DNA of 52,067 bases. Source: Rothia sp. (in: high G+C Gram-positive bacteria) (GTDB taxonomy: Bacteria > Actinomycetota > Actinomycetes > Actinomycetales > Micrococcaceae). The notes under the pieces are model-generated. The model saw only the letters and a program-made list of their open reading frames with translations, did no database searches and was not told where the DNA came from. Every line of letters starts with the position of its first letter. Position 1 is the first letter of the stretch. The stretch spans positions 1 through 52,067 of the forward strand of contig JAXFPK010000067.1 of the NCBI GenBank assembly GCA_034179845.1. The letters run 5' to 3'. Positions 17,401-45,635 of this stretch are shown here, one piece after another. A program made the translations under genes and the position numbers.

Positions 17401-17478
17401 TTATGACACTCTATGACGCTTTTATCCACAAGGGTTCTGTATGTATTTGACTAGGTGAAACATTCTGCCTGTGGAGAG
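17401..17478. promoter_or_regulatory. 10-bp-phased TATGAC repeats plus DnaA-type box upstream of the pseudokinase
   Basis: TTATGACACT-CTATGACGCT (17401-17420), TTATCCACA (17422-17430), TTTGAC (17446-17451), degenerate TGTGGAGAG (17470-17478). Confidence 0.6.
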
Positions 17479-17517
17479 CGGTGAGAAGGCAAGAACACAC
17501 TGGTATATAGCTTAAGC

Positions 17518-19164
17518 ATGAGCACCCCCACACAAGCACCCCAGACACCTCAACAGCCTGCCCCGACGGAACAAGAAATAGCGCACTCTTCTCTTCTCCC
17601 AGCAAACCTAGCCGATGTTACCCCGCGCTACCGCATCGAAAGCGGAGCCCACCACAGCACCTGGATCGTAGACTGCGGCTACCAAGGCGCTGCCCAACTC
17701 GAGGTGCAAGCTGGCCCCTACACTCTCACCCACATCACCGAACCTGCTGAGGAACACATCAAAGCAGCCGAACGGCTCTGCTCCATCAACCCCCACCCCG
17801 CAGTGCTACGCGTTGATGCGGTAACCTCATCAGCCAACTCCCACCACATCTGGTATGAACCCGCTGAAGCCGGTACTCTTGCAGACTACTGCCAGGCCAA
17901 AGGCAAACTGCCACTAGGGCAAGTAACAGCCATCGCACAAGGTCTCACGCAGGCCCTGAGCTACCTCCACGAGCAAGGCTTTGCCTACTCCACCCTCACA
18001 GCCAACCATTGCCTACTCACCGTGCGAGGCGAACTCAAACTTCTTGCCCCTGATCTTAATACCCGCACCCTGACACCAGCAGTACAAAAAAGCCGGCAGG
18101 CAGAGAATATTGCTGCTTGCGCTGCCCTGCTATGGTTTTGCCTGACCGGCCAAGAACCTAAGACTATGCGACTGAGAGCTCCACTGAACCTAGCCGTCCC
18201 CCAAGCAAGTGAAGCGCTAGCCCAGACTCTCGAAGATGCCATCGACTCTAGAGCCCAACAACCTCAGCTTGCAGACCTACTAGCTCCCATCGAACTAGTA
18301 GCAGACCCCGAGCCTCTAGAACTTCACCTCAGCGCCCACCCAAGCGTGCATTCCAGGCTCCCTGCCTACAGGCAACCTGAAACAAGAGAACCTCACCGGG
18401 CTATCAAACAGCGGTGGAAAACCTACGGGCAACTTCCAGATCTATCCCAAGGGAACACAAGACACACCCGCAAACAGATTCTCAAGAAAACAGAAAGCAA
18501 AAGCAGCTGGCAACTACCCCTAGGGAAGAATCTCCAAGGCAGGGGAGCCCTTGCCGGGGTAGCCGTCGTTGCTGCCCTAGCCCTGGGTGGGGCTGGGTAT
18601 CATCTCTTCTCCCCAACATCTTCCTCTGAAGAAATGAAGTCAGAAGCCGAGACTACTTCATCACCTTCACCTCCTAGTGAACTAGCTGTGGAGCCTCAAC
18701 TGGCCGGCCAGCCACAAGAAACCGAGGAACAACAGGTAAAGACCGCAGGACTAAGTGATGATGAAATAGCTCTAATCACTACAGGACTAGTGGCTACCCG
18801 CAGCACAGTCCTGGCTTCAGGGGAACACAGTCGCATTGGCGAATACGCACCTCCAACCTCACCACTGGCTAAATCCGATCAACAACTGCTAAGCCATGAA
18901 GGTGCAGCTAGATTAGCTGGCACAAGCACAGAACTGATTGCGGTGAATGAGGTTGTAACAACTGAAAACGGTTATACACTCCGGGCCATCGTGCAAGCTA
19001 ACGGGTATAGCCCCACTGGTAGCGACCAAGAACTTTCTGCACAAGGGATTAGCTGGCAAGACGGTAAAGTGCTCCAACACGTTGAGCTGAGCATCCAAGA
19101 CCAAGACGGAAGCTATCTACTAACTCAGGCCCGCCCACTGCCACTGACACCGTCCACCCTCTAG
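17518..19164 (+). CDS. Membrane-anchored Ser/Thr kinase-like protein (probable pseudokinase)
   Basis: Kinase-fold remnants (HPAVLRV, GTLADY, ALSYLHEQG), but YSTLTANH replaces HRDxKxxN and APD replaces DFG. A single TM helix precedes a C-terminal extracellular domain. Confidence 0.75.
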   Translation: MSTPTQAPQTPQQPAPTEQEIAHSSLLPANLADVTPRYRIESGAHHSTWIVDCGYQGAAQLEVQAGPYTLTHITEPAEEHIKAAERLCSINPHPAVLRVDAVTSSANSHHIWYEPAEAGTLADYCQAKGKLPLGQVTAIAQGLTQALSYLHEQGFAYSTLTANHCLLTVRGELKLLAPDLNTRTLTPAVQKSRQAENIAACAALLWFCLTGQEPKTMRLRAPLNLAVPQASEALAQTLEDAIDSRAQQPQLADLLAPIELVADPEPLELHLSAHPSVHSRLPAYRQPETREPHRAIKQRWKTYGQLPDLSQGNTRHTRKQILKKTESKSSWQLPLGKNLQGRGALAGVAVVAALALGGAGYHLFSPTSSSEEMKSEAETTSSPSPPSELAVEPQLAGQPQETEEQQVKTAGLSDDEIALITTGLVATRSTVLASGEHSRIGEYAPPTSPLAKSDQQLLSHEGAARLAGTSTELIAVNEVVTTENGYTLRAIVQANGYSPTGSDQELSAQGISWQDGKVLQHVELSIQDQDGSYLLTQARPLPLTPSTL

Positions 19165-19189
19165 AGAACCTATCTACCTGTCTATATGC

Positions 19190-19224
19190 CAGGGGCGGTG
19201 CACCAAACCGGTGCACCGCCCCTG
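19190..19224. terminator. Hairpin between convergent genes
   Basis: CAGGGGCGGTGCACC-5 nt-GGTGCACCGCCCCTG perfect stem. Confidence 0.8.
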
Positions 19225-19257
19225 AGTATAAGAATCTACAGATTCTTGAAAACGAGC

Positions 19258-19641
19258 TTAAATCTGGGGGTACTGCATGAACACCGCGATAGCAATATTA
19301 ATTAGTGCCAAACCGCCAACAGTATGGGCCAAAGCCACATTTCTGCCATTTTCAGGGGTGCCCAGTGCACAGGCGGCCTTGTACTTCTTCTGTCCCATAA
19401 AAGCAGCTACAGCAATGATGAGAGCAAGCACCATCTTGATACCAATCATCATGTGATTCAAGGTCATGTTCTGTGACATCTGAAGGAAATAGAGAGCAAA
19501 GCCTGTAATCACCTGTAAGAGGGCTGCATGGAACTGGCCGGGTAAGACGATGCCCTGCTTGAAGGTGCCTAGCCATAGGCCAAGAACCATTGCGGCACCC
19601 ACGATATGCAGGAAAAGAAGAATTGAAAATGCGATAGACAT
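19258..19641 (-). CDS. Conserved 4-TM membrane protein
   Basis: Four hydrophobic helices with LHIVGAA, QVITG, NH..IGIK and H.VGGLA motifs. Confidence 0.8.
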   Translation of the reverse strand: MSIAFSILLFLHIVGAAMVLGLWLGTFKQGIVLPGQFHAALLQVITGFALYFLQMSQNMTLNHMMIGIKMVLALIIAVAAFMGQKKYKAACALGTPENGRNVALAHTVGGLALINIAIAVFMQYPQI

Positions 19642-19754
19642 GACCACAAGTCTACGTAATACTTAGTTGTTTAGCGACAGTTTGCCACTAAAAGATGTGT
19701 GGGCGTGACCACGCAAGAAACCATAGAAAAAGAATACTATCCCGCAAAGAACAG

Positions 19755-19791
19755 AAAGGTGCCCCGCTGGCAAAATTACCAGCGGGGCACC
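19755..19791 (-). terminator. Terminator of sucB
   Basis: GGTGCCCCGCTGG...CCAGCGGGGCACC with a T-run on the minus strand. Confidence 0.8.
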
Positions 19792-19825
19792 CAAGCACCT
19801 AGCTATCAGAGCTAAGAACTATGGC

Positions 19826-21466: not shown

Positions 21467-21561
21467 GGTCCTTCGTGCTCTCCTTGTGAGTGGTTTAAAA
21501 ATTATGAAAGGTAGGTGGGTGGGCTGCCGGTGGGCGAACCCACCACCTACCTGAGTCTCAT

Positions 21562-22938: not shown

Positions 22939-23137
22939 GTTGACGCTCCCTTACATGGGTTGCGGAGGCCGAAGCCCCCATGTGTACTGTCACGTTCTAG
23001 CTTATCCCTTGAACACCTCCACCTGCCACTATTGACAGGTGTTTTATTGTTCTGGTGGGAATGATTACACCCTCTACCCCGCTAGAACCTAACTAAAAAG
23101 GGTGTAAACGTAAAAAGTTGCCTACGAAAGAGGAGAA

Positions 23138-25959: not shown

Positions 25960-25971
25960 AGTGCGCCTGGC

Positions 25972-26105
25972 TGTGGAAATCCTCATATATCTGTCACAGA
26001 TAAGTCATAGATTCACCGACATATAGGTTCCTAGCCCATGGTCTACCACAAAAAACCTTGTGACTTGGGTAAATTCCCTATTCGCTGACTATGAAGATAT
26101 CCACA
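25972..26105. promoter_or_regulatory. Pair of near-consensus DnaA-type boxes upstream of the DUF4192 gene
   Basis: TGTGGAAAT (25972-25980) and ATATCCACA (26097-26105), with GTCA repeats 11 bp apart (25993, 26004). Confidence 0.45.
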
Positions 26106-26155
26106 AGGGGTAGCGAAATTCCCCTAAGGCTCTGACTTTCACCAGGCTAATAGGT

Positions 26156-27562
26156 ATGACAGAGAATTACTCCGCCCCAGAAGAACCCACCGTTACCTAC
26201 ATCAGCTCCGAGCGCGACGTCCTTGCCCTAGCACTTCACCTTTTAGGGTATTGGCCTGAACAATCCATCCTGCTTCTAGCTCTCAGCGACGGAGGCGCTG
26301 GCCCCCTCATGCGAGTAGATATGCCGGATATTTCTGACGTAGCCCCGGACGACTTCCTTACATACCTCTTTGGCGCCTTCCCCACCCACAGCCCTAGCGG
26401 TGACCCTATCAACAGCGTCTTTCTGCTCCTCTTTGCCCCAGGTTCAACTTCGGGTACTGCAAATGCGGCAGTAGAAAGTCCTTTCATAGACACAGCGCAA
26501 CAGTACGCCACGCTCGCCCCAGCTCATGCTCAACGCCATGGGCTAAACGTACTGGACGTACTTGCAATTGGGCAACAGGCCTACTGGGCAGTAAATCCCG
26601 CTGAAGGACAACTTGCTCCCGCAGGCTTTCTCGACGATGTGCTCACAAGCCCGCTCTACGCCGAACTGGTAACTCGCGGATCATGCGTTGCGAACGATTT
26701 CTTAGAAGCACAAAAACTCAAAAGATGGGATGCGCTACAAACCCAGAACCCCCAGGCACAAGAGAGCTGGCAGGTCTATGCTGAAGCTGCTAGCACCCTA
26801 TACCAGCACAATAAAGAAGAAGAGAACCCTGATGAAGCGTTCCAAATTGCTGGCGAACTAGAGCTGTGGGAACAGGCGATAGATACAGTGACTTCCTTGC
26901 TAGATAATGCCCCGGGTATAGACCTAGATAACAGGGGAGTGCTAGCTGATTCCATACGCGCCACGGTGCTACCTGACTTAGCCGGTTTTCTCATCACTTC
27001 ACTCAGTAGCCTCGCCACGCTGCAACTGGTAATTTTTCAGGCCTGCCGCAGTCTCAAAGACTCCGTAGCCGCCCTTGAAACCTTGGCCAAGAGCAGCGAA
27101 GAACTTGGAATAAATCATCAGCCGGAATCTAATAGGGTGCTGCCCCTGCCCTCCACGCTTCACCGGTATCAGCTCAATCACCTCAGCCAACCTGAATCTT
27201 ATACACCGAACCCATCAAAAGACACAGGGGATAATCTCAGCGCACTCGCACAGACCCTTTTTGGGCTAGAAACTCTCCCACCATGCTGGAAACGTCTTGA
27301 CGCTTTAGCCTGCCTGGCAGCCGTACTTGAAGGCTCTGCCACCGGGAAAGCAGAAGGGGCTCTTGTTGCTGCTCAAGCCTGGATGAGCTGGATGCGGGGA
27401 AACTCTACAGAAGCCTCCCATCTGCTCGAAACCATTGATAACACCTATATTGAAAATGATTCTCTACCCCTGCACTACCTCTTAACCATAAGTGCCTTCC
27501 CAGCCTGGCTTACCCTCCCTGGAGGGACTCCTGGAGGGAAGATGAGTAAGAATAGCGAATAA
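26156..27562 (+). CDS. DUF4192 family protein (divergent)
   Basis: N-terminal DVLALALHLLGYWPEQSILL...RVD and C-terminal AWMSWMRGNSTEA. Conserved position upstream of sigA. Confidence 0.8.
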   Translation: MTENYSAPEEPTVTYISSERDVLALALHLLGYWPEQSILLLALSDGGAGPLMRVDMPDISDVAPDDFLTYLFGAFPTHSPSGDPINSVFLLLFAPGSTSGTANAAVESPFIDTAQQYATLAPAHAQRHGLNVLDVLAIGQQAYWAVNPAEGQLAPAGFLDDVLTSPLYAELVTRGSCVANDFLEAQKLKRWDALQTQNPQAQESWQVYAEAASTLYQHNKEEENPDEAFQIAGELELWEQAIDTVTSLLDNAPGIDLDNRGVLADSIRATVLPDLAGFLITSLSSLATLQLVIFQACRSLKDSVAALETLAKSSEELGINHQPESNRVLPLPSTLHRYQLNHLSQPESYTPNPSKDTGDNLSALAQTLFGLETLPPCWKRLDALACLAAVLEGSATGKAEGALVAAQAWMSWMRGNSTEASHLLETIDNTYIENDSLPLHYLLTISAFPAWLTLPGGTPGGKMSKNSE

Positions 27563-29276: not shown

Positions 29277-29780
29277 TTAAGCAATAGCTAGGGCCACAAT
29301 TTTCCAGTTGCCTCGTTTGCGCTCTGCCCGAAGAGCTATAGCTCTCGTCCGAATCTCATCGGTCACCAGTAAACTCATCTCATAGGCTGTAGGGGCAGCT
29401 TTCTGAACGATGATACGACGCGGGCGAATCTGTGCTGAAGGCTTCTGAGGGTACATGGCTTGAGGGTAATGAAGCTGCCGGTAACGAATGGCAGCTTTAG
29501 CTTGTTCAAGCTGCTTCTCCAGAGTGCGGTAGCAGCCAATAGTCATCCACGGCGCCAGATGATGCTGAGGCCTGCGCCCCATAAAAACTTCAATGGCAGC
29601 GGTTCCGATGCGAACCCCAAGCTGCTCAACAGCCTGCTCCTCTTGATCGATAAATGAAAGACTTACTTCAGGCTCAGCGGGGTGACCCTTTTCAAAGAAA
29701 GGCGCATATTTCTCAGCGTATTCGGTAGCCTCTACGATGATGTATTTACGGTTGTCTCGTTCTGGGAAAGCGGTTTTCAT
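29277..29780 (-). CDS. Rv3235-family protein
   Basis: Motifs AAIEVFMGRRPQHHL..W and RTRAIALRAE...NWKIVAL. Located downstream of the LysM gene. Confidence 0.75.
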   Translation of the reverse strand: MKTAFPERDNRKYIIVEATEYAEKYAPFFEKGHPAEPEVSLSFIDQEEQAVEQLGVRIGTAAIEVFMGRRPQHHLAPWMTIGCYRTLEKQLEQAKAAIRYRQLHYPQAMYPQKPSAQIRPRRIIVQKAAPTAYEMSLLVTDEIRTRAIALRAERKRGNWKIVALAIA

Positions 29781-29800
29781 TGGATGCTCCTTTGTAAAAC

Positions 29801-30730
29801 CTAACGGGGTAAATGAATAGTTTGACCTGGAAAAATAAGGGTATCTAGGGTGGGGATAGTATCTTGATTAAGGTGGTAGATGCTCTGCACAAGCGCCAAC
29901 ACCTCAGCTCCAGAAGCATCTGGGGCTAACCTGCTTTCTGCAATGCTCCATAAGGAATCACCAGAGGCTACGGTGTAGGTATCTGTGAGATTTTCAGTTG
30001 GGTGTGCATCTTTGCCCTCGGAGGCTCCAGAGAACTGCACTGACTCTGGGGTAGCAAGAAGGGAAAGTTCCTCTTGGTTGCTACCGCCTTCCCCAGAGAT
30101 TTGCGATAGAGGAGTGCTGCCTCCAAATAGGGGAGAGATGGGGCGGTAGCTTGTACCTTTGACAGGAAGAATAGTTACGGCCGTCTGCGTCTGAGGGCTT
30201 TCGAAGAGCGGTGAAAGTGGAGTTGCGGGGCTCCTTAGATCGATGAGGGGACCATCGATAGGAGAAGCGACGTTAGATTCGTGAGGAAACAGAGGGGAAG
30301 AAATCTCGTCTCCGTACATCGGTGCTGTAAGTACAGCGGCCTGTTCAGACGGTAAAGCATAAGCCTGTGCTGCGGGGTTTAAAGCTCCAATGCCTATAGA
30401 GGCTCCAGCAAGTGTCTTAAGAAGACCAGGGGCCCAGGCAGGAAGCTGTATCTGATGGAAGGTACGCTGCGAACGAAGCAGAGCACTGTAATAAAAACCT
30501 AAGCTCATAAGCCACCAGAGGGCAATACAGAAGCAGAACAGGCCAATAAGAGCACAAACTAAAAGACTAACCCACAGGCCTGGGGTACCTGGAGCTATGT
30601 CTAGGCCGTGTTCCTTATCTGTGAGAAGTGAGTGAACCATCATGCTAGCTACTCCAGCGCCCGCCAGAGCTAGCAGAGGAACCAAATTGGCAACTATGAA
30701 GGCAGAAACCCTTGTTTTCACTTCTTTCAC
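29801..30730 (-). CDS. Membrane-anchored LysM-domain protein
   Basis: Two N-terminal TM helices, a Pro/Ser linker and a C-terminal LysM (YTVASGDSLWSIA...N...LIFPGQTIHLP). Confidence 0.85.
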   Translation of the reverse strand: MKEVKTRVSAFIVANLVPLLALAGAGVASMMVHSLLTDKEHGLDIAPGTPGLWVSLLVCALIGLFCFCIALWWLMSLGFYYSALLRSQRTFHQIQLPAWAPGLLKTLAGASIGIGALNPAAQAYALPSEQAAVLTAPMYGDEISSPLFPHESNVASPIDGPLIDLRSPATPLSPLFESPQTQTAVTILPVKGTSYRPISPLFGGSTPLSQISGEGGSNQEELSLLATPESVQFSGASEGKDAHPTENLTDTYTVASGDSLWSIAESRLAPDASGAEVLALVQSIYHLNQDTIPTLDTLIFPGQTIHLPR

Positions 30731-30740
30731 CTCGAATCAT

Positions 30741-31422: not shown

Positions 31423-31653
31423 TTAAGAAATATCTGCCCGCTCTGACTGATCAGCCCGGATAGCTTCTTCGGTCATGGCATAGCGCTCGCTGATATAGGC
31501 TTCGAGCATACTCTTCTCAACTCTCCACTGGTTTCTGCCACCAATCTGGATAGCTTTTAGCTCCCCAGAACGCACCAATGCACGAGTTTGACTGGGGGAG
31601 ATATTAAGAATTTCACCGACGTCTGTCAGAGTGAGGAAACGCTGTTCAACCAT
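31423..31653 (-). CDS. Stand-alone excisionase/BldC-like (MerR-type) helix-turn-helix protein
   Basis: RFLTLTDVGEILNIS...VRSGELKAIQIGGRNQWRV. No integrase nearby. Confidence 0.88.
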   Translation of the reverse strand: MVEQRFLTLTDVGEILNISPSQTRALVRSGELKAIQIGGRNQWRVEKSMLEAYISERYAMTEEAIRADQSERADIS

Positions 31654-31690
31654 GTCTAGAGTCCTTTTATGAGGGGGTGAATGGGGGATT

Positions 31691-31770
31691 CTTTGCTACA
31701 TTTTAGTGTATTTTGACCTATTTTGATAGAAGAATCAAAGTCTGTGGATAACTTGATTGATTTTGCGTAA
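31691..31770. promoter_or_regulatory. Array of 10-bp-phased TTTG repeats plus perfect DnaA-type box in the HTH/cpaB divergent promoter
   Basis: CTTTGCTACA-TTTTAGTGTA-TTTTGACCTA-TTTTGATAGA (31691-31730), TGTGGATAA (31743-31751), in-phase TTTTGCGTAA (31761-31770). Confidence 0.65.
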
Positions 31771-31865
31771 CCTTCGCCCAAAATATGCAAGAATTTTGAA
31801 ATCTAGCCTCTGATTAGGGAAACTGCTGTTAAAGAGAAAAATCCCTGACTCAAAGAGGTGCCCAC

Positions 31866-32510
31866 ATGGCTCAAGAAAACCTAGCTGCCCGCTTCAGAAA
31901 ACCGGGCTTTCGCGACCCCAAGCTGCTGGCGGGCGTCCTCATCATTCTTCTCTCAGTTCTAGGGGTGGTCGGTATCGTGCGAGCTACCAACCAAACTCAG
32001 CCCTATTACGTAGCTAGCAAAGATATTGGTATAGGTGAGAAAATCACCACCGACAACACTACAACCACCCAGGTCAAACTCGGAGACTCAGCCCAATTCT
32101 ATCTTTCAGCCGATCAAGTAATCGCTGAGGGCACAGTTGCCACACGCCCCCTAGCCTCAGGCGAACTTCTCTCTGCACGTTCACTATCAAGCGAAGTAAA
32201 TGATGGGCGCAGACTCGTCACATTACTTCTAGACCAGTACGCGGTAGCTGAATACCTACCCGGTGACCACGTAGATATTTGGGTCGCCTACAAAACAGAG
32301 GGCACCAACTCCTATGGTGACCCCGTAGCGATAGCAGAATCAGCACAGGTACATTCTGTAACCGCCCAAGAGTCAGTCATCGGAGGCACAGGACGTTCAG
32401 CTGTAGAACTATGGGTCAAGCAGGAAGTCCTACCTGATGTACTGGGTGCAACAAGTAAAGGCGCGGTCATCAACCTGGTTCCATCGGCTTACGAAACAGG
32501 AGATAACTAA
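31866..32510 (+). CDS. SAF-domain Flp pilus assembly protein (CpaB/RcpC-like)
   Basis: RFRKPGFRDPKL followed by a TM helix and a SAF domain (YYVASKDIGIGE...ATRPLASGELL); PGDHVDIW. Confidence 0.75.
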   Translation: MAQENLAARFRKPGFRDPKLLAGVLIILLSVLGVVGIVRATNQTQPYYVASKDIGIGEKITTDNTTTTQVKLGDSAQFYLSADQVIAEGTVATRPLASGELLSARSLSSEVNDGRRLVTLLLDQYAVAEYLPGDHVDIWVAYKTEGTNSYGDPVAIAESAQVHSVTAQESVIGGTGRSAVELWVKQEVLPDVLGATSKGAVINLVPSAYETGDN

Positions 32511-33889
32511 TGCAGGTCCCTCTTGTTGTCGTTGGCGATGAAGGCGGACGCTTCATCGCAGCTATCGAATCCCAGCGCGGCCATGTGAGCGTGGTCAGAC
32601 ATGTTCACGACATCGGCGAGATGCTAGGAATCGCCCAAAGCGGTATCGCCCGCGCTGTACTCATCGTGACCGGGGCAGAACAACTAACTCATTCCATGGT
32701 GAAATCCCTGCACCTTCTAGAGGTAGCAGTTTGTCTTGTCCTCGACCAAGGAACCCCACCAGCTATCACAGGGGTTCACCCCATCGACTCCCTAGCCGAT
32801 ACTGCCGAACTCATCGGTGAAATAGAACAAGCAGTCGAAAACCTGCTGGCTTCAGAAGACCCCGAACCTCGCTCCGAACCGCACCTAGATGCACCTGAGC
32901 TCTGCGCACCTGCACACACCGGGCAGCTACAGACAGAAGAAAAACAGGACGCACCCCCTTCACCTCACACAAACGGAAAAGTAATGGCAGTATGGGGGCC
33001 CTACGGCTCACCAGGGCGCACAACCTTAGCCATCAACCTAACAGCAGCCTACGCAGAAGCAGGTTACACAGTATGCCTGGTGGATGCAGATACCTACGGG
33101 GCCTCAATCGGGGCCGCCTTGGGGCTCACCGATGACTACTCGAGCCTGGCCCAGCTCTGCCACTATGCAGACCGCGGGAACCTCACCCAACAGCAGCTCA
33201 AAGAACTAACCCATACCATTTCAGACCGTTCCCACTATTTCGACGTCATCACCGGGATAAACAAAGCAGAACGCTGGGTAGAAGTACGCTCCAGCGCACT
33301 AGAGCTTGTGCTCAATCAACTGGTCTCAAAATACGACCTAGTAGTAATTGATACATCCTTTTGCTTAGAAGAAGACCCCGCCCTGAGCTTTGACGGCCTA
33401 ACTCCCCAACGAAATGAAGCAACCCTCACCAGCCTGACACGAGCCGATCACATAGTAGCTGTCGGCCTAGCAGACGTCGTTGGCGTACCCCGGCTCATCA
33501 AAGCATACGACAGTCTCACCACAGCTCTTGGAGCGAACCCCGCCGAGAAAATCAGCATTGTCTTTAACCGAATCCGCACCGAAGCCTTAGGCGGCTCCGC
33601 ACAAGCGGCACTAGAACACTCCTGGGAACGCTTTGGGCCAGCCCTCCCTATCACATCTCAACTACCAGAAGACACCGCAAACGCAGATAAAGCCCGGCTA
33701 GAAGGACGAACCATTCTTGACCTAGCCCCACACACAGAACTGGCTCGCCAACTGCACGAACTAGCTCAGACCACTCAACGCGCCCTAGGACTTGGAAAAC
33801 CTGCCCCATCGCTAGAGCAAGTACAGGGCATAAGCATGATAAAAAAGAAGAAACCCTGGGCGCGCTTTACCCGCCGCCACAGTACCTAA
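32510..33889 (+). CDS. TadZ/CpaE-like MinD-family ATPase with N-terminal receiver-like domain
   Basis: Deviant Walker A WGPYGSPGRTT, LVDADTYG, VVIDT, basic amphipathic C-terminus. Start overlaps the SAF gene stop. Confidence 0.8.
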   Translation: MQVPLVVVGDEGGRFIAAIESQRGHVSVVRHVHDIGEMLGIAQSGIARAVLIVTGAEQLTHSMVKSLHLLEVAVCLVLDQGTPPAITGVHPIDSLADTAELIGEIEQAVENLLASEDPEPRSEPHLDAPELCAPAHTGQLQTEEKQDAPPSPHTNGKVMAVWGPYGSPGRTTLAINLTAAYAEAGYTVCLVDADTYGASIGAALGLTDDYSSLAQLCHYADRGNLTQQQLKELTHTISDRSHYFDVITGINKAERWVEVRSSALELVLNQLVSKYDLVVIDTSFCLEEDPALSFDGLTPQRNEATLTSLTRADHIVAVGLADVVGVPRLIKAYDSLTTALGANPAEKISIVFNRIRTEALGGSAQAALEHSWERFGPALPITSQLPEDTANADKARLEGRTILDLAPHTELARQLHELAQTTQRALGLGKPAPSLEQVQGISMIKKKKPWARFTRRHST

Positions 33890-33919
33890 ACCGCCCGGTT
33901 CACGCTAACAGGAGGCACC

Positions 33920-35461
33920 TTGTCACTGACCGAACCCCTCATGCCCACAGACGCTTACAGGCCCGGCGACATCGAATGGCTCCACCTACTCACCAACGAA
34001 TGGCAAATCATTGCAGACACCGGCTACTGCGACCTGATGCTCTGGGCCCCCCACCCCGAGACCATCGAAGGCTATTTCTCCCTCTCCCAATCGCTACCTG
34101 CCTCCGCTAGGTTCATCAACCTGGCCCAAATTCGCCCCTCCACCACCCACACAGTCTTCCACACCGACTGGGTAGGAAAAGAACTCAACCCTGCCCTCTG
34201 CGAACGCGCTGTAGCGAGTTGGAATAGTCAAACCCCCAAGACATTCAACGATGAACATAACCTCACCGACATCGTCCTTGATACGGAATTTATTCCACTC
34301 ATACGTAACGACAGGCCTGTAGCCCTACTATCTGTCCACCGTGAAAGCCTAGGTACCCGAAAGCGCCAGAAAGCAGAACGGGTCTACCGCGATGTCTCCC
34401 ACCACCTTCTACAGATGGTCTCACGCGGGGCCTGGCCCGAATTCGCTGCCCCTGTTGGAACAGCCCACGGCAACCCACGCGTCAGCGACGGTCTTGTCAT
34501 GCTTGATACCGACGGGCGAGTCACCTACGCCTCTCCTAACGCCCTCTCAATTTACAAACGCCTCAACTACGCAGGCGATATGATCGGGGCAAGCCTGCTC
34601 GATATCACCCGGGCCTTACTCCCCACCGGCGAAAAAGCGGACGAAACTCTGCCCCTAGTTCTTACCGGCCGCATGCCCTGGCGTGCAGAAATTAAAGCCA
34701 ATCTCAAAAACGTCACCTTCCGCGCCATTCCCCTGCGACACGTCTCCAGATTTGGCGAAGAACGCTACGGTGCTCTTCTCTTGTGCCGCGACGTCACAGA
34801 GCTACGCCGGCGAGAACAAGAGATGATGTCTAAAGACGCTACCATCCGCGAAATCCACCACAGGGTTAAAAACAACCTCCAAACAGTGTCAGCTTTACTG
34901 CGGCTACAATCTAGACGCATGACCACCCCCGAAGCGAAGGAAGGCCTTGAACAGGCCATGCGTCGTGTATCAACTATCGCCCTGGTACATGATGCTCTCT
35001 CGCAAGGGCTGACCCAGGACGTAGATTTCGATGACCTCATCAGCCGCCAATTCAGACTTGCTGCTGAGCTAGCGTCCCCCGGCCAGCAGGTTGCAACCCG
35101 AATTGAGGGATCATTTGGGAAACTACCTAGCCAGATCGCAACACCTCTAGCCCTTGTTATCAACGAGGTCGTAGCTAACGCGGTAGAACACGGGCTAGCT
35201 GGAGAAACCGGTACCGTGACGTTAGGCTGCCAACACCGCTACTCAGAAGGGCAAGAGCACAGCATCATCGTTACAGTGCACGATAGCGGCCAGGGGATCA
35301 GTGCAGAGAAAATCAGGGAGCTAGAGGAAGACGGCCCCGGAAACGGTCTCGGCACACAAATCGTGAAAACCCTGGTTGCTAGCGAACTCAACGGTACTAT
35401 TCATTGGTCTCCAGCCCCTGAAGGTGGGACTCTCGTAACGATTGAAGCAACTATCTTATAG
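33920..35461 (+). CDS. pdtaS: Cytoplasmic sensor histidine kinase, PdtaS type
   Basis: N-terminal sensor (WQIIAD...DLMLW), PAS domain, H-box EIHHRVKNNLQ, NAVEHG, GLGTQIV. TTG start after AGGAGG. Confidence 0.88.
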   Translation: MSLTEPLMPTDAYRPGDIEWLHLLTNEWQIIADTGYCDLMLWAPHPETIEGYFSLSQSLPASARFINLAQIRPSTTHTVFHTDWVGKELNPALCERAVASWNSQTPKTFNDEHNLTDIVLDTEFIPLIRNDRPVALLSVHRESLGTRKRQKAERVYRDVSHHLLQMVSRGAWPEFAAPVGTAHGNPRVSDGLVMLDTDGRVTYASPNALSIYKRLNYAGDMIGASLLDITRALLPTGEKADETLPLVLTGRMPWRAEIKANLKNVTFRAIPLRHVSRFGEERYGALLLCRDVTELRRREQEMMSKDATIREIHHRVKNNLQTVSALLRLQSRRMTTPEAKEGLEQAMRRVSTIALVHDALSQGLTQDVDFDDLISRQFRLAAELASPGQQVATRIEGSFGKLPSQIATPLALVINEVVANAVEHGLAGETGTVTLGCQHRYSEGQEHSIIVTVHDSGQGISAEKIRELEEDGPGNGLGTQIVKTLVASELNGTIHWSPAPEGGTLVTIEATIL

Positions 35462-35480
35462 ATAGTAAGAACACTATAAA

Positions 35481-35518: not shown

Positions 35519-35543
35519 AAGAACACTTAAGTGAAGTCTTCTA

Positions 35544-35792
35544 CTATGAGGCCCTACGGGCTCGAGCAGCACGTCGCTTTATAGCACGACGCTCATCCTC
35601 ACTTGTACCGCCCCACACGCCAGAATCCTGGCCTGTTTCGATAGCCCACTGCAAGCAGATATCCATCACAGTGCAGCCGCGGCAAACATTTTTAGCCTCT
35701 TCAATCTGAAGAAGGGCGGGCCCGGTATTTCCTACGGGGAAAAAGAGTTCAGGGTCTTTCTCAAGACAAGCAGCACGGCTACGCCAATCCAT
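35544..35792 (-). CDS. whiB1: WhiB-family Fe-S regulator WhiB1/WblE
   Basis: MDWRSRAAC..DPELFFPVGNTGPA, four Cys, GVWGG. Confidence 0.93.
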   Translation of the reverse strand: MDWRSRAACLEKDPELFFPVGNTGPALLQIEEAKNVCRGCTVMDICLQWAIETGQDSGVWGGTSEDERRAIKRRAARARRAS

Positions 35793-36077: not shown

Positions 36078-36461
36078 ATGGCTTCTTCTAGTGCCTTAGC
36101 CGTCCCCAGGCCAGTGAAAATCTTGGTTGGCTTAAGCTTAAGCCAGGCCCTATACCTTGCCTTCCGCGCACTCATCGGCATTATCACCTCTACTGAAAGT
36201 GGGGGAGCTGTAGTGACAGCCTCCTTCTACTTTATTATCTCGCTAGCCCTTGGCGTAGGCGCTCTTGCCATATGGCGGGCCCAGCGCTTTGGGCAGACGC
36301 TTGTGCTCGTCTGGCAGCTCTTTGCCGTTATTATTGGCATTCAAACAGCCCTAGGTGGGGACCACCTGGTAGGAATCACAGCAGCCACGATTGGAGGGGC
36401 CGTTATTTTGCTACTTTTTACTCGCTCTACTCTCGAGTATCTGACTCCTTCTTCCCGCTAG
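36078..36461 (+). CDS. Small 4-TM membrane protein
   Basis: Hydrophobic ORF with a WQL motif, typical neighbour divergent from whiB1. Confidence 0.7.
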   Translation: MASSSALAVPRPVKILVGLSLSQALYLAFRALIGIITSTESGGAVVTASFYFIISLALGVGALAIWRAQRFGQTLVLVWQLFAVIIGIQTALGGDHLVGITAATIGGAVILLLFTRSTLEYLTPSSR

Positions 36462-39400
36462 CCTCTACCTCTGGCAGGGCCGCTTGAAAAGCGCTAACCC
36501 TTGCATGGTCAATAATGACTCCACGCCCTGCCGGTAACTGACCATAGGTTCTAAGGTCAAGCGGTAAGGTAAGGCCAGGGTAGAAAGACATATCTGCTGA
36601 GGTTCGTGGGCTAAGGACGATACCTGTGGACGTGCCGTTAAGGGCTGCAAGAATCGGGGAGGTATTCCAGCGCGGCCACGGAGTATAGGTAAGAACAACC
36701 GATTCAAATTTATCTTTCTGGTTGAGTATCGTATGCTGCACATCATGACTGAGCTGATCAAGATTATCAATGAGCAATATAGGGCGAACCCCTAGACTTT
36801 CACCCGCGAGGAGGGCCTGCTCGATATCTGCCATCTGAGTAGTAGCACCTGAGGAGATAAGGATGAAATAATACTCAGGATTAGCTTGGATGAAGGTTTG
36901 GAGCAGGCTGGTTTTCCCTGACCCACGAGGGCCGCTAACACTCATGAACCCTGCCCGCAAAGGCGGGGTGAAAGCTGTAGACCCGTCTCTGAGCACTCCA
37001 CACGCAAGTGCACCTGAATGAGGTTTAGGCGCACGAGAGATAGCATGCACAGGGCAGAACAAGGGTAAGGGGCGCCAGGAATGCTCGCCAGGGTAAGAGC
37101 CCTCTAACTGGGTGGTGGGCTGTAAGGAGGCCTTGTCTGAAGAACTCGGTGATGTATCGAGTGCTGCCCAGACAAGCGTACCTGCCTGCACCCGTCCTTG
37201 CGAGGAGTCGTAGATAGATTTTCCTTCTACCGCAAACTGCCCACTGCCCGGTATCGTGTAATCCTTGGTGTGGGGGCGGAGAGGGTCACTTTCAAGAGCA
37301 GAACGAGTCATGAAGGTGTGCTCAAAAATTTGCTGGTACTTGCCCCGCACTCCTGTAACTGAAGTGCATAAAACCTGGACCTTGGGGTGCTCGCCCATGG
37401 TAAGTATCTGCTGCAGGTGGAATTCTGCTACCGGGTGCCGCTGAAGGGAATCAAGCAGCACCTCGAGAGCATCTATCAGTAGGAGCTGACCAGGCTTGGG
37501 CTCTTCTGCGCAAGAGGCTAGAAGATGCTGTACATAGTCAAAATCCTGGTAGGTAAAGACCTCAACCTGCTCTGCATACTCCTCACCCCAGCCCCGTATC
37601 TCTCGAGCCCGCTGCTCTGAGGGGGTAAGACATAAAACGGCATAGCCTTTCTCCAGCGCTTGAAGAAGGGTTACCTGAAGTGCCGGCAGACAATCATTGC
37701 TAGATCCCTGTAGTAGGACCGGGCCATTGCTAGGCGTCCAGATAAAAGGAGCTTGAAGCCCTAACTCTGCTATCTCGTAGCGACCCAGCAGCAAAGAAAA
37801 CGGGTGAGCTGAATCTGGCATATCGGTATGCTTGGGAGGCTGAAGGGCAGCGGCGATAGGCCGATAAGCAGGTAACTGGTGAAGTGCCTGATAAGCCTGA
37901 TGAACGGACGTATTGGTAGCCTCAAGGTCGGTATCGCTCAGCGGCGGGAGCATCTTGGCCATGTGAGAATCATCGATATCGAGAATAAAACGTGCACGGC
38001 AGAGGTCTTCTGGTTCTTGCTCATAGAGCCCTGTAATTAAAGGTGCTTGAAACTCAACCACCTCATTTTCAGTGCTTTTGAGGAGCCCCCGGCCGGGGGA
38101 CTGCGCAGAAAGATGAGCAGCATCATCAGAGCCTAGGACGCTAAAAGATTCCTGCGCAGAACTTACTCTCAGACACATCAGCGTTGAAATGTTGGCCCGA
38201 ATATCGGGAGAAATTGCTCCCTGAGGGCGCTGGGTAGCAAGGATAAGGTGATAGCCCAGTGATCTACCGATAGTAGCGATTTTCATTATTTCGTTCATTA
38301 TCTCTGGGTAATCATCGACGAGCATACGAAACTCATCGATACAGATAACAAGCTCTGAAAACTCCGGGGCTGTACGGGTAGCTTTGCAGCAGGCGATGTA
38401 ATCATCGTAGGAGCTAATTCCCATGCGTTTCCACATCTGTTTGCGCCGCGTGAGATCTGCTCGTAAAAATTTCATCGTGCGCATCAGCTGAGAAGTTTCA
38501 AGGTCAGATATTAGTGAAGCGCAGTGGGGCAAGGACGCTAAGGGGCCTAAACCAGCGCCACCTTTGAAATCAATGAGGATCAATGAAAGACGTTGGGGCG
38601 GGTAGCGTAGTGCTGCTGACCACAAGAGCGAACGAAGAAGCTGAGATTTACCTGAACCTGTTGTTCCCGCGCAGAGGAAATGAGGGCCGTGAAGGGTCAG
38701 CCCCAGTTGTAGATTGGCATTACTCCCGCAGGCCTGGCCTGCGAAGAGAAAAATCTCTGCCGCCCACAGGTTCTTATGTGCACCCTCCTGCGGTAACTCA
38801 GTCAGACCATAGGCTGGTATGTGAGATGTCAGTACTTTAGCGCCAGCTAAACCTTGGGAAATAGGGGATAGCTGACCGGGCGTGAGGTCAGCTAGTAGCG
38901 CACAGTAACGCTCTTCGCTGATTCCATCTACAACGAAGCTATGCCAAGGGTGGGGTGGAGAAAAGAGGTCTGTGGGCGACTGGGGGGAGGAATAAGAACT
39001 GACAGGAAAGGCCCTTAGCTGCGCTGGTAAGGACGCCGGTATAGAACAGCACACCACCACACCAGCATCGACGCTATCAAGTTCTGCTGTGGATACTGCA
39101 AGTACGTTTGCTGTAGCAAGCAGCGGATCAATAAGACGTAGAAACCAGGCGGGATCTTTCTTCCCTACCAGAACATAGACAGGCTCTTCCTTGGCTACAA
39201 GCTGATAAAGAGCTAACCTCTGGGCTGATAAAGGCAGGGTAGGGAGTATCTGTGCAAGTTCTTCTGCGTTGACCGTATAAGGTGCTGCCTGGACTTCAGG
39301 TAATTGCTCTAACTCACGTTGCCGTCCCATGACTCGTAATGGTCGGGTGCCGCGTCCTACGATAAAACCTGTAGTAGCGTGTACCGCATCAGCTCCCCGG

Positions 39401-40185
39401 TAGCTGACTACTGCTTCTTCTTCCGCATGGGCAAGGTGCGCTATTTCCCGGCGTACCGAAGACCGTTCATGGCCTTGTGTAAAGGCATGAAGACCCATCA
39501 AAAGTGAGGACCCACAAGCCATCAGAAGAATAAACCACAGTTTTGTAAACCAGGCAATGACGAGCCCGATGATGAGAGGGAAAATCATCATAGCCACGGT
39601 AAGTAGCTTAGATTTAGGCGCAGGAACATCAATCTCTTGAATCTCAGGGTCACAGAAAAGGGGAGGGCTCTTCTCATGCTGGTCAAGAACGAGGACGCTA
39701 CTACCTAAGACAAATTTTTCCCCAATGGTGATTCTGTGGTGCGCATCTTTCCCTGAGAAATACACTCCGCTGCCAGTTACTTCGAGGCAGCCCTCAATAG
39801 GTGCGAGAGAGGGGTCCTCAACTCTGAGCAGAGAAGCTTGTCTGCCGATTTCCCAGCTACCTCGTGCCAAGGGAAAGTAAGAATGTGAGTCTGGCCCGTG
39901 AATCACGCGCAAGATAAAGAGAGGTTGGCTCTCTGAAGGGGAAGACCAAATCGGATGAGATAAAGAACCTGATACTTTGAGCTGGGCGCCATCAACCCAG
40001 GGAGAAAGACCAGGGGTGAGCCCCCTGATATCGTTCCCCTGAATGCTCCAGCTGAAATGATCGCTACCCCACAAGGAGCACAGTTCTTGATGGCAGATAG
40101 CCCCTGTTGTTCCTCGTGAATACTCAAGTTCTACCGACCTGTAAGGCCCAGCGGGAGGTTGCTGGATGCGGAGTAAAAGCTTCAT
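36427..40185 (-). CDS. FHA-like + 2TM + FtsK/SpoIIIE ATPase (EssC/YukB-like architecture)
   Basis: FHA-like GPDS...WEIGR...EDPSL, two TM helices, GTTGSGKS, LIDFKGG, IDEF, ATQRP, a degenerate middle domain and C-terminal GPRGSGKT. Start is 40185 or 40215. Confidence 0.85.
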   Translation of the reverse strand: MKLLLRIQQPPAGPYRSVELEYSRGTTGAICHQELCSLWGSDHFSWSIQGNDIRGLTPGLSPWVDGAQLKVSGSLSHPIWSSPSESQPLFILRVIHGPDSHSYFPLARGSWEIGRQASLLRVEDPSLAPIEGCLEVTGSGVYFSGKDAHHRITIGEKFVLGSSVLVLDQHEKSPPLFCDPEIQEIDVPAPKSKLLTVAMMIFPLIIGLVIAWFTKLWFILLMACGSSLLMGLHAFTQGHERSSVRREIAHLAHAEEEAVVSYRGADAVHATTGFIVGRGTRPLRVMGRQRELEQLPEVQAAPYTVNAEELAQILPTLPLSAQRLALYQLVAKEEPVYVLVGKKDPAWFLRLIDPLLATANVLAVSTAELDSVDAGVVVCCSIPASLPAQLRAFPVSSYSSPQSPTDLFSPPHPWHSFVVDGISEERYCALLADLTPGQLSPISQGLAGAKVLTSHIPAYGLTELPQEGAHKNLWAAEIFLFAGQACGSNANLQLGLTLHGPHFLCAGTTGSGKSQLLRSLLWSAALRYPPQRLSLILIDFKGGAGLGPLASLPHCASLISDLETSQLMRTMKFLRADLTRRKQMWKRMGISSYDDYIACCKATRTAPEFSELVICIDEFRMLVDDYPEIMNEIMKIATIGRSLGYHLILATQRPQGAISPDIRANISTLMCLRVSSAQESFSVLGSDDAAHLSAQSPGRGLLKSTENEVVEFQAPLITGLYEQEPEDLCRARFILDIDDSHMAKMLPPLSDTDLEATNTSVHQAYQALHQLPAYRPIAAALQPPKHTDMPDSAHPFSLLLGRYEIAELGLQAPFIWTPSNGPVLLQGSSNDCLPALQVTLLQALEKGYAVLCLTPSEQRAREIRGWGEEYAEQVEVFTYQDFDYVQHLLASCAEEPKPGQLLLIDALEVLLDSLQRHPVAEFHLQQILTMGEHPKVQVLCTSVTGVRGKYQQIFEHTFMTRSALESDPLRPHTKDYTIPGSGQFAVEGKSIYDSSQGRVQAGTLVWAALDTSPSSSDKASLQPTTQLEGSYPGEHSWRPLPLFCPVHAISRAPKPHSGALACGVLRDGSTAFTPPLRAGFMSVSGPRGSGKTSLLQTFIQANPEYYFILISSGATTQMADIEQALLAGESLGVRPILLIDNLDQLSHDVQHTILNQKDKFESVVLTYTPWPRWNTSPILAALNGTSTGIVLSPRTSADMSFYPGLTLPLDLRTYGQLPAGRGVIIDHARVSAFQAALPEVEASGKKESDTRE

Positions 40186-40511
40186 AGGGCTACCTAAGAC
40201 CTGGAAACCTGCCATCGCAAGGGCGCAAAACAGAAAAACAAACTATATGCGTTGTTTTTAGGTGGTGGCGGGGAAAAATTTAAGATTTTCACCTCCCTGT
40301 CACCTCCGATAGTGAGACTGGGGAATAATCACACGAATTTTCCAGCCTGTTAGCGGGTAGTGGCCGCCCATATCCGGTACTTTTGTTATTAACTGTGTTT
40401 ACCGTACATAGAAGGAACACACTGAAGTTTAAGCTTCTACGCTGTAGTAGCAGAGCGCGGTTGCCTCAATCCCCACGCTAGGTGCGCAACCCCTAATAAG
40501 GAGTAAGTTAA

Positions 40512-41699
<1,188 letters not shown>

Positions 41700-41701
41700 C
41701 A

Positions 41702-43720: not shown

Positions 43721-44598
43721 GTAAGCAAATAGTTCACCCTCTTTTGCCCCCAGGGCGTGGTAGAGGTCTACGAGATGTCCTTCAAAATCGTTATCTTTTG
43801 AAGCTGCTGGTCGACAAGGAAATCCAGGTTCGCTACCGTGGGTCTGTCTTGGGTATTCTTTGGTCGTATATTAAACCGGGTGTGCAGTTCGGTGTCTTCT
43901 ACATTGCCATGGGCCTTTTTCTGGGCCTGGAACGGGGCATGCAGAATTATGCTATTTACCTGTTCTCTGGCATGGTTGTCATTAACTTCTTCTCTGAAGG
44001 CTTCAGTAATGGGGCTAAGGCCATGGTTGTTAATGGTGCCTTGATTAAGAAGATTTACCTTCCTCGTGAGCTGTTCTCGGTCTCAACGATTTGGGTGGCT
44101 TTGATCCACTTTGTGCCTCAGATTGTGGTGCTTTTGCTGGCTTGTATTTTTGCCGGGTGGAGCCCAGATGTGAAGCAGGTTGCTGCGGCTCTTGTTGCCA
44201 TGGTGATTATTATGGTGTTCTCTGCGGGGCTTGGCCTGATTTTTGGTGTGGCTAATGTCTTTTTCCGTGATTCAGAGAATATTGTGGATATGCTCCTGAT
44301 GGTTGCTACCTGGTTTTCTCCGGTGCTGTATTCATGGACTATGGTGCGAGATACTCTCTATTCGTGGGTTATTAATGTTTATCTTCTGAACCCTCTGACC
44401 GTTGCTGTTGAACTGTTTCACTATGCTTTCTGGATCCCCACTTTGTCTGAGGAGGCTTTGGCTCTACCAACCTCGCAGATCCCTCCGCATCTACTTACTC
44501 TGTGGGTGCCGGTTGCCTTGGGCGTTTCGCTAGTAACCTTGTTCCTTGGTGACTTACTTTTCCGTAAGCTCGAGGGCAACTTCGCCCAGGAGCTCTGA
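43717..44598 (+). CDS. wzm: ABC-2 polysaccharide export permease
   Basis: Motifs RYRGSVLGILWS, LIKKIYLPRE, FFRD, LNPL. Confidence 0.9.
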   Translation: MSKQIVHPLLPPGRGRGLRDVLQNRYLLKLLVDKEIQVRYRGSVLGILWSYIKPGVQFGVFYIAMGLFLGLERGMQNYAIYLFSGMVVINFFSEGFSNGAKAMVVNGALIKKIYLPRELFSVSTIWVALIHFVPQIVVLLLACIFAGWSPDVKQVAAALVAMVIIMVFSAGLGLIFGVANVFFRDSENIVDMLLMVATWFSPVLYSWTMVRDTLYSWVINVYLLNPLTVAVELFHYAFWIPTLSEEALALPTSQIPPHLLTLWVPVALGVSLVTLFLGDLLFRKLEGNFAQEL

Positions 44599-44602
44599 TC
44601 GT

Positions 44603-45379
44603 ATGGATATCAAGAAGTTCGATTTACCGCCTGTGACTGATAGCGCCCCGGTGGTTATTAGGGTTGAGTCGCTGGTCAAACGCTTTGTGCTGCGCCATAC
44701 CCGTTCGATGAAGGAAGCTTTCGTCTGGTTGATGAAGGGCCGCAAGGGAGATTTGAATGAGAAATTCAATGCGCTCAACGGGGTCTCTTTAGATATTCGT
44801 GAAGGTGAGCGCGTTGCCTTGCTGGGTTATAACGGTTCTGGCAAGTCAACCTTGCTCAAGCTGATTTCGGGTGTGATGCACCCTGATGAAGGTATGGTGC
44901 TGACGGGCGGACGCATTGCCGGGCTTATTGAGGTCGGTGCAGGCTTTCACCCCGACCTTACCGGGCGGGATAACGTGTACCTCAACGCCGCAATCCTTGG
45001 TATGAGCAAGGAACAGATCGAAGCAAAGTTCGATGAAATTGTTGAGTTCTCTGAAATCGGCAACTTTATTGATACCGAGGTGAAGTTCTACTCATCGGGC
45101 ATGTATTTGCGTCTGGCGTTTGCTGTGGCTGTTCATACTGACCCGGAGATTTTCTTGGTGGATGAGATCCTGGCGGTGGGCGATGAGCCTTTCCAGAAGA
45201 AGTGTATCGCTAAGATTCGTGACTTGAGTGCTGAGGGGAAAACCCTGGTTGTAGTCAGTCATGACCTTGATTTGGTGGCTAGGATTTGTGAGCGTGGTGT
45301 CGTTTTGGATCACGGTTCTAAACAGTTTGATGGTCCTATTGACCAGGCGATTGAGTTCATGAGGGCTAAATCTCGGTAA
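44603..45379 (+). CDS. wzt: ABC polysaccharide export ATPase (no C-terminal carbohydrate-binding domain)
   Basis: Motifs GYNGSGKST, YSSGM..RLAF, LVDE, VSHD. Start refined to ATG 44603. Confidence 0.92.
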   Translation: MDIKKFDLPPVTDSAPVVIRVESLVKRFVLRHTRSMKEAFVWLMKGRKGDLNEKFNALNGVSLDIREGERVALLGYNGSGKSTLLKLISGVMHPDEGMVLTGGRIAGLIEVGAGFHPDLTGRDNVYLNAAILGMSKEQIEAKFDEIVEFSEIGNFIDTEVKFYSSGMYLRLAFAVAVHTDPEIFLVDEILAVGDEPFQKKCIAKIRDLSAEGKTLVVVSHDLDLVARICERGVVLDHGSKQFDGPIDQAIEFMRAKSR

Positions 45380-45394
45380 GAGAAGTCTTCCCCT

Positions 45395-45431
45395 AAAGTA
45401 CCCACAAGCTCCCTAGCTTGTGGGTATTTTT
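45395..45431 (+). terminator. Terminator of the galactan operon
   Basis: AAAGTACCCACAAGCT...AGCTTGTGGGTATTTTT. Confidence 0.85.
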
Positions 45432-45502
45432 GTGCGTTGTTACTAGTCAGTAACTAGTTGCGTGTCTAAACGTTACGAATTTCTGCAATGAAAATGAGGG
45501 GC

Positions 45503-45635
45503 TGTGGAAAAGTTCTGCCCTTGAGTTGTCGTGCCTTATCAAGCAAAACTTGTATGGGATCTAACCTGTGGGGCAGAGGCGCACCCGGCTGATTTATCCA
45601 CAGAATTTTCTTCTGCCGTTTGATTGTTTGACCTA
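45503..45635. promoter_or_regulatory. Two DnaA-type boxes plus TTTGAT/TTTGAC repeats upstream of tadA
   Basis: TGTGGAAAA (45503-45511), TTATCCACA (45594-45602), TTTGAT (45619-45624), TTTGACCTA (45627-45635). Confidence 0.6.

Follow-up and report, generated by a model that had tools for sequence, protein, structure and literature searches.

Late-competence regulons are known from Bacillus subtilis (ComK), from streptococci (ComX/SigX), and from Pasteurellaceae and Vibrio (CRP-S with Sxy/TfoX). In Actinobacteria, the competence regulon is called unknown in a passage of PMC12849477, and the closest genetic reference is Micrococcus luteus. The sections of the reports at hand describe both tad clusters and comEC as required for its transformation (PMC4322843), tadA1, tadA2, and comEA as falling 4-fold together, and a library of deletions in DNA-binding proteins as containing two mutants with strong impairment, each linked to amino-acid biosynthesis (PMC6667448). 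Mutations that relieve the repression of comEA/EC are reported to map, with few exceptions, to an HTH_17 gene (Mlut_14660) that is divergent from cpaB-tadZ-kinase and could not be deleted; promoter-off mutants formed no cluster, and a tad-adjacent gene of the FtsK/SpoIIIE family was required for transformation (sections of PMC8467076). The replication initiator DnaA acts as a transcription factor at Escherichia coli nrdAB, at Caulobacter gcrA, ftsZ, mipZ, and podJ, and at B. subtilis sda, and it activates promoters in other systems (PMC8203912). Here we analyzed a 52,067-nucleotide stretch of Rothia sp. DNA (the window; contig JAXFPK010000067.1, our C17, of a 1.88-Mb assembly, G000, 92.6% complete), in which boxes resembling the DnaA box precede Tad-pilus and other genes. 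Among named organisms, Rothia has the TadA proteins nearest to that of the window.

The exact box TTATCCACA occurs three times in the window against 0.26 expected, a count reached in 0 of 100 shuffles. A first-pass annotation of this DNA had placed these copies before a pseudokinase gene, in the divergent HTH_17/cpaB-tadZ promoter, and before tadA, together with a consensus-type box (TTTTCCACA) further upstream of tadA; all four are present (Table 1) and intergenic, and the flanking genes are as named (kinase-like protein, HTH_17/CpaB-TadZ, TadA, DUF4192). The central copy lies between both units of an HTH_17/cpaB-tadZ-kinase arrangement like that of M. luteus. Of two copies reported to be one mismatch away before DUF4192, the site at 26097 (ATATCCACA) is so, but the one at 25972 (ATTTCCACA) carries two mismatches and is absent from the one-mismatch list of the window. 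At the pseudokinase promoter, the forward site at 17422 exists, but the site conserved in relatives is a reverse box at 17470–17478 that had been overlooked. The exact boxes and TTTTCCACA fit TT(A/T)TNCACA. Taken alone, neither this pattern (TTWTNCACA, 4 against 2.66 expected, matched by 30 of 100 shuffles) nor the one-mismatch set (9 against 7.89, matched by 39 of 100) is enriched in the window. The spacers before glnA, sucB, lpdA, and sigA lack the TCCACA/TGTGGA core, as had been noted by eye. The boxes stand at one or two per promoter, with no dense cluster and no adjoining dnaA; an oriC- or datA-like cluster was rejected as their identity, because dnaA is located on a separate contig (C129), in line with the reported lack of a dnaA/oriC context, and the true box clusters on C100 and C148 are separate.

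The whole assembly holds 29 exact copies, 23 of them in non-coding DNA (outside the genes called by a simple gene caller of our own) against 1.49 expected under a third-order model of such DNA. Ten of the 23 are of replication type: three around dnaA, four on C148 and two on C100 in clusters, and one before nrdH-nrdI-nrdE. The other 13 precede comEA-comEC, a second ssb, the DUF4244 flp pilin gene of a second tad cluster, tadA, HTH_17/cpaB, three AbiEi-like genes (five boxes), the pseudokinase gene, an ESX-like pair, and one unknown open reading frame (ORF). Box variants precede yraN-comM-dprA, a WXG100 gene, two further AbiEi-like genes, and a long extracytoplasmic function (ECF) sigma factor gene. 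Of the 1090 genes preceded by 60 nt or more of free DNA, just 17 have a strict box upstream. The genome scan proposed with the first-pass annotation was hence positive for comEA-comEC, second ssb, flp, and yraN-comM-dprA, and negative for comF and the second tadA. A DNA uptake sequence was rejected since 29 copies (23 non-coding) are not the hundreds such sequences have, and a mobile repeat was rejected since the copies share motif positions only and their spacers differ.

The boxes hold a fixed position in their promoters. A forward core is present in 76 promoters, and across these, [TC]AnnnT hexamers give 53 hits at gaps of 37–41 nt, against 0–4 per position elsewhere; within the window, the gaps are 41 (tadA), 37 (DUF4192), and 37 (HTH_17). 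Column statistics were drawn from 60 promoters selected for this box-hexamer layout. They give the site consensus gTT(A/G)TCCACAG (T63, T72, A55/G25, G80 percent), a start codon 6–7 nt after the hexamer in 27 of the 60, a C at the head of 53% of hexamers, and no conserved −35 element, with nothing upstream of the hexamer above 0.25 bit. Spacing in the reverse orientation is weak (10 hits at gaps 28–32 from the core, 29 promoters), and there is often a further box upstream of the first, in direct or inverted orientation. In G000 alone, a genome-wide scan for this architecture stands only modestly above background: 16 of 50 sites have a hexamer at 36–42, for a background rate of 0.15. If the hexamer is read as the −10 element, the box lies at about −50 to −60, further upstream than the core promoter and therefore in an activator-type position. 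The box itself was rejected as a sigma-factor −35, because its gap to the hexamer is 37–41 and not 16–19.

Conservation was followed in 25 genomes (G000, 12 of the same genus, and one from each of 12 other families) by counting the core TCCACA on either strand within 200 nt of the start, with 1.4–2.4 expected per gene; n falls below 25 where a gene was not found or a contig ended, and ten loci of other tadA paralogues were excluded. The core precedes comEA in 20/24 genomes (other families 7/11), tadA in 17/20 (9/9), yraN in 19/25 (9/12), and DUF4192, with fixed spacing, in 19/23 (7/11). Control promoters carry it rarely (glnA 1/24, pepA 0/24, lpdA 2/21). The phylogenetic footprinting that had been called for thus finds the box kept in orthologous promoters across order and class and missing before housekeeping genes; DUF4192, put forward earlier as a regulon component, is a solid member, and the pseudokinase gene (9/13) a weaker, mostly genus-level one. 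In 80 named genomes (Rothia, Arthrobacter, Kocuria, Micrococcus, Cellulomonas, Blastococcus, and others), 72 tadA promoters hold the core against 8.0 expected, compared with 19 of 233 windows further upstream, and 52 hold the strict TTNTCCACA against 0.5 expected; a Micrococcus tadA locus (L333) carries boxes. Class-wide, the core precedes yraN at 27 of the 30 loci that score best among 120 matches, where 2.6 are expected, and at 34 of 40 further loci picked to cover families, 61/70 in sum. The second ssb has it in 17/20 loci and the operon-internal ssb in 0/9, the loci being grouped by search rank and by eye and the ambiguous box-bearing locus L491 excluded; a split based on ettA (11/13 against 7/17) is unreliable, as ettA often lies outside the flank. 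AbiEi/DUF559 genes carry the core at 28/30 loci from 13 genomes (2.9 expected; ten loci from G003), including 11/13 outside the genus. The core is present in 4/4 recA and 0/5 radA promoters; no recA was recovered from G000. Motifs that we take to be the SOS box and the PafBC/RecA-NDp element also stand in some of these recA and radA promoters, so that the SOS and PafBC damage regulons are separate from the set marked by the box. The earlier proposal of one regulon, plausibly for competence, is supported by this conservation and by the boxes that this genome carries before comEA-comEC, second ssb, flp, and yraN-comM-dprA.

A class-wide promoter signature of DNA-uptake genes in Actinobacteria is almost certainly real, and it is very probably related to competence. 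The set comprises tad, comEA-comEC, yraN-comM-dprA, the second ssb, recA, DUF4192, and AbiEi/DUF559, and in part HTH_17/cpaB and the pseudokinase gene; its genes would be co-induced at competence. Judged from sequence, DnaA is the probable reader of the box, and if it is, activation would be the strongly expected outcome. On balance, we lean towards the boxes defining a DnaA-activated competence regulon. We offer only tentatively the wider proposal that, throughout Actinomycetes, natural competence may have DnaA as its direct master activator, acting through one box at about −55, with DUF4192 and AbiEi/DUF559 as new transformation factors and HTH_17 as feedback repressor. In the proposed mechanism, the hexamer would be the −10 element, many transcripts would be leaderless, and a protein bound near −50 to −60 would bring RNA polymerase to a promoter that is weak by itself. 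DnaA, as that protein, would switch on Tad pili, ComEA/EC, DprA, ComM, SsbB, and RecA, and its free level or nucleotide state would couple uptake to the replication state. The HTH_17 protein, with a box in its own promoter, would act as the repressor through which the regulon stays silent in rich medium, and in close Rothia an MtrA-type regulator may add a second input through a GTCAY-n6-GTCAY repeat. An essential activator combined with an HTH_17 repressor would fit the M. luteus library and mutant results.

Several observations point to DnaA. In all 25 genomes, the words of the promoter boxes also make up the oriC flanks, and a TCCCCA variant is found both at yraN promoters and at oriC in G031, G115, and G131 (TCCCCA against TCCACA at oriC: 7 and 4 in G031, 2 and 7 in G115, 4 and 4 in G131), the same three genomes having TCCCCA/TCCACA pairs before comEA. 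DnaA is the sole match to PF08299, DnaA domain IV, in G000. Purified wild-type Mycobacterium tuberculosis DnaA at 300 nM gives a weak in-vitro peak of 3.6–5.7-fold 92 nt upstream of Rv2415c (PMC7738170, S8), which a passage of PMC2587704 lists as ComEA.

A number of results weigh against a DnaA-activated competence regulon. The sharing of TCCCCA rests on raw counts without a chance model, and covariation of the third box letter with oriC (rho 0.52, n = 23) was dropped as proof of DnaA, because both follow G+C content (rho −0.75, −0.70). The G000 assembly, at 92.6% completeness, yielded no recA, so it could also lack a second reader. In the mycobacterial assay, oriC and dnaB reach 36–88-fold, and the comEA peak belongs to a group of several dozen weak peaks; the sections consulted name just five strong DnaA regions, in vitro and in growing M. 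smegmatis, none a competence gene, nine M. smegmatis chromatin immunoprecipitation (ChIP) peaks carry no gene name, and table S8, searched by locus tag, has no row for yraN or tad genes (PMC7738170). The first letters of the box are loose outside Rothia, the site often starting with CCG, TCG, or CTG in high-GC families, and the strict TTNTCCACA is found outside the genus in 0/11 comEA and 0/11 DUF4192 promoters, but in 8/9 tadA promoters. Thirteen of the 25 footprint genomes are kin from one genus and not independent. The core precedes HTH_17 in only 13/21 genomes (other families 7/8) and cpaB in only 10/19 (6/8), and the FtsK-like gene of the window has no box upstream. In G000, no separate box precedes comF, the prepilin peptidase gene, or the second tadA; the first two of these sit close behind an upstream gene.

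The loose 5′ letters outside Rothia and the mycobacterial ChIP and in-vitro DNA affinity purification (IDAP) data without strong com peaks in the sections of PMC7738170 consulted would be accounted for if another conserved actinobacterial activator read TCCACAG in the same regulon, its likeness to the DnaA box being convergence or borrowed specificity. We regard this as unlikely, given the full TTATCCACAG in many promoters (including the strict excess before tadA), the variant common to promoters and oriC, the lack of a second DnaA-domain-IV protein in G000, and the weak M. tuberculosis comEA peak. DnaA might instead bind the boxes and repress, uptake genes being off during active replication and competence following DnaA release. 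DnaA does repress several promoters, with a sign that can switch with its nucleotide state (PMC8203912), and M. luteus competence is described in PMC8467076 as a late-exponential, poor-medium trait. However, the box is separated from the −35 zone by about two helical turns on the upstream side and does not overlie the core promoter, promoters without a −35 consensus and with about half of hexamers starting with C look too weak to need a repressor there, and the derepressed mutants reported in PMC8467076 map to the HTH_17 locus, which makes repression by DnaA distinctly unlikely.

That locus could itself supply the reader: the HTH_17 protein of the Mlut_14660 type has a box in its own promoter, is the one regulator of comEA/EC that genetic mapping has identified in M. 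luteus, and could not be deleted (sections of PMC8467076). Its mutants gain expression, though, whereas the box holds an activator position; a cpaB-linked HTH_17 gene was not found among the loci retrieved (20 of 26 matches) for the box-bearing G025, G028, and G115; and a structure search returned no informative solved relative, only Gp37 as a weak match (E 0.1) and no known specificity, so we consider HTH_17 an improbable reader. The boxes at recA (4/4), the second ssb, nuclease-like DUF559 genes, and nrdH would also suit a replication-stress or DNA-repair regulon in place of competence. With radA at 0/5 and with core members that are pilus and uptake genes described in PMC4322843 as required for M. 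luteus transformation, this seems highly improbable, and the two readings can overlap. Chance matches, AT-rich spacers, or datA-like titration sites might be suspected from the unenriched degenerate matches in the window and from the true clusters on C100 and C148, but are already refuted by the fixed hexamer spacing, the gene-specific conservation, and the clean controls, and we give them practically no weight.

A second motif accompanies the box in close relatives. The repeat GTCAY-n6-GTCAY is present in 11 of 981 intergenic regions of G000, six of them among the 31 box-bearing regions (0.47 expected, 0 of 20000 draws), and starts 15 nt behind a reverse core in three regions; without a box, it precedes rpf and an NlpC/P60 gene. 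The strict repeat is seen in G000, G002, G003, G008, and G009 only, of 13 genomes of the genus. It fits the MtrA motif, a direct repeat c-G-T/A-n-A-C/T-c with an 11-nt period in the sections of PMC6265350 at hand, in its GTnAY half sites, in its period, and in its position before rpf and the NlpC gene. It is seen only in a few close Rothia, and its reader could be another OmpR-type regulator or HTH_17. This restriction makes it a local addition, with MtrA as putative reader. The genes mtrA-mtrB-lpqB-comF form one run on C51. Box and repeat occur together at L018 (C144:14067-14357), a WXG100 gene after a two-component system, and at L006 (C65:4226-6609), where an ESX-like small ORF is followed by a WXG100-like hydrolase gene; a link of type VII substrates to the box regulon is possible.

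The features of the window are collected in Table 1. Around them, a palindrome GTTAC-n6-GTAAC at 45439-45454, partly kept in G003, lies upstream of the tadA boxes and directly after a terminator-like hairpin. A gene for an FtsK/SpoIIIE-type ATPase occupies 36427-40215 (−), a few kilobases from the tad cluster; a small gene that looks WhiB-like by eye lies at about 35530-35790 (−), downstream of the PdtaS-type kinase gene on the opposite strand. LysM and DUF6459 genes at 29277-30730 (−) lie downstream of HTH_17 in the same orientation and are possibly transcribed together with it.

Table 1 Boxes, predicted promoter elements, and genes of the window.
Feature	Position	Strand	Basis
ATGAC-n5-ATGAC repeat (GTCAY-type half sites on minus strand), adjoins box	17403..17417	+	sequence; also in G003
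Exact box TTATCCACA, upstream site of pseudokinase promoter; distance kept in G003 only	17422..17430	+	motif scan, relatives
Reverse box variant CTCTCCACA, 29 nt before −10-like hexamer; conserved in relatives, often as TTATCCACA	17470..17478	-	relatives
Predicted −10 TAGCTT of pseudokinase gene	17508..17513	+	sequence; inferred
Kinase-like protein, weak Pkinase match under cut-off; probable regulon member	17518..19164	+	9/13 relatives with core
Upstream reverse box variant ATTTCCACA, DUF4192 promoter	25972..25980	-	sequence
GTCAC-n6-GTCAT direct repeat, MtrA-like, 15 nt behind reverse core	25993..26008	+	sequence
Proximal box ATATCCACA, ends 37 nt before predicted −10 (DUF4192)	26097..26105	+	sequence
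Predicted −10 CAGGCT, 7 nt before ATG of DUF4192 gene, leaderless-type	26143..26148	+	inferred
DUF4192 gene, regulon member	26156..27562	+	19/23 relatives with core
HTH_17 (excisionase-like) gene, arrangement as M. luteus Mlut_14660, proposed com repressor	31423..31653	-	family match, locus comparison
Predicted −10 TAAAAT of HTH_17 gene, 37 nt after box	31700..31705	-	inferred
Exact box TTATCCACA within divergent HTH_17/cpaB promoter	31743..31751	-	motif scan
Possible cpaB −10 CAAAAT, 27 nt after reverse-read box	31779..31784	+	weak; AT-rich spacer, many candidates
cpaB/rcpC (SAF domain)	31866..32510	+	family match
tadZ/cpaE-like ATPase	32510..33889	+	family match
PdtaS-type histidine kinase, third gene in cpaB run	33920..35461	+	family match
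Upstream reverse box TTTTCCACA, tadA promoter	45503..45511	-	motif scan
Exact box TTATCCACA, ends 41 nt before predicted −10 (tadA)	45594..45602	+	motif scan
Predicted −10 TATCTT of tad operon	45644..45649	+	inferred
tad-1-type cluster: tadA, tadB, tadC, 69-aa ORF (no family match), tadE, 152-aa ORF, tadG-like	45696..50313	+	family matches

Elsewhere in G000, nuclease-like AbiEi-N/DUF559 genes occur in multiple copies, on C15, C87, C103, C130, C143, and C152, and G003 has 11 matches; the Pfam matches of the G000 proteins are mostly under the cut-off, the C143 copy has none, and two of the genes are short N-terminal forms of ~154 aa. The dense DnaA-box clusters away from dnaA are L008 (C100:4900-5100) and L012 (C148:12650-13110); one follows a rhomboid gene and the other lies between sodA and a MarR gene, and both are candidates for datA-like sites, comparable to the mycobacterial Rv0010c-Rv0011c site. 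The boxed ECF sigma factor gene, L082 (C31:20-3379, minus), encodes 1119 aa with a long C-terminal extension, and upstream of it a TTTCCACA variant ends 36 nt before TACAAT; this sigma factor may be a second-tier regulator. Among small genomes, six of 1.4-1.5 Mb (L389-L394) have the core before yraN in 5/6, and G126 has comEA and comEC yet no core before comEA. The words GCGGACG and GGACGCC are strongly over-represented between G000 genes (GCGGACG 140 against 15 expected) and are probably a repetitive extragenic palindrome (REP)-like repeat.

A shared site of fixed geometry yields the gene list of a regulon, and membership assigns a likely role to DUF4192 and AbiEi/DUF559 genes. That the site is kept across the class suggests a regulated uptake system also in many Actinobacteria for which transformation is not known. 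Should DnaA read the box, the replication initiator would directly control DNA uptake; should it be the master activator, uptake would be wired to the replication cycle in a phylum with few species known to transform.

Compared with the late-competence regulons named at the outset, the arrangement is familiar in that one common upstream site precedes pilus genes, comEA/EC, dprA, comM, a second ssb, and recA, and CRP-S is a precedent for the reuse of a general regulator. Unlike the ComK, ComX, and CRP-S regulons, the site here is a DnaA-type box and the pilus is of the Tad/Flp type, and the set extends beyond theirs to DUF4192, AbiEi/DUF559, WXG100, and pseudokinase genes, which have no known uptake role.

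Known DnaA-controlled promoters share the upstream 9-mer and offer a precedent for activation, and nrdH-nrdIE and dnaA are boxed in G000 too; unlike them, the promoters here belong to pilus, uptake, and recombination genes, with a spacing fixed across the whole class. The words 'competence' and 'Actinobacteria' do not occur in the main text of the DnaA review PMC8203912. Mycobacterial DnaA sites outside oriC include strong clusters like those on C100 and C148, besides the weak peak upstream of comEA, and the passages of PMC7738170 consulted do not discuss single or paired promoter boxes at com genes. The M. luteus locus Mlut_14660/Mlut_14650-40-30 has the same divergent arrangement as 31423-35461 of the window; for it, sections of PMC8467076 propose transcriptional interference together with a repressor and name no shared site, and 'dnaA' is absent from the main text of this and three further M. 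luteus papers. Our search for literature on the DnaA box with comEA, on DnaA ChIP-seq in Streptomyces, on DnaA with actinobacterial competence, and on DUF559/AbiEi, outside whose reach most subscription papers lay, returned nothing on such a regulon. DnaA regulons and competence regulons are both of known kinds, and their union appears, as far as could be found, to be new.

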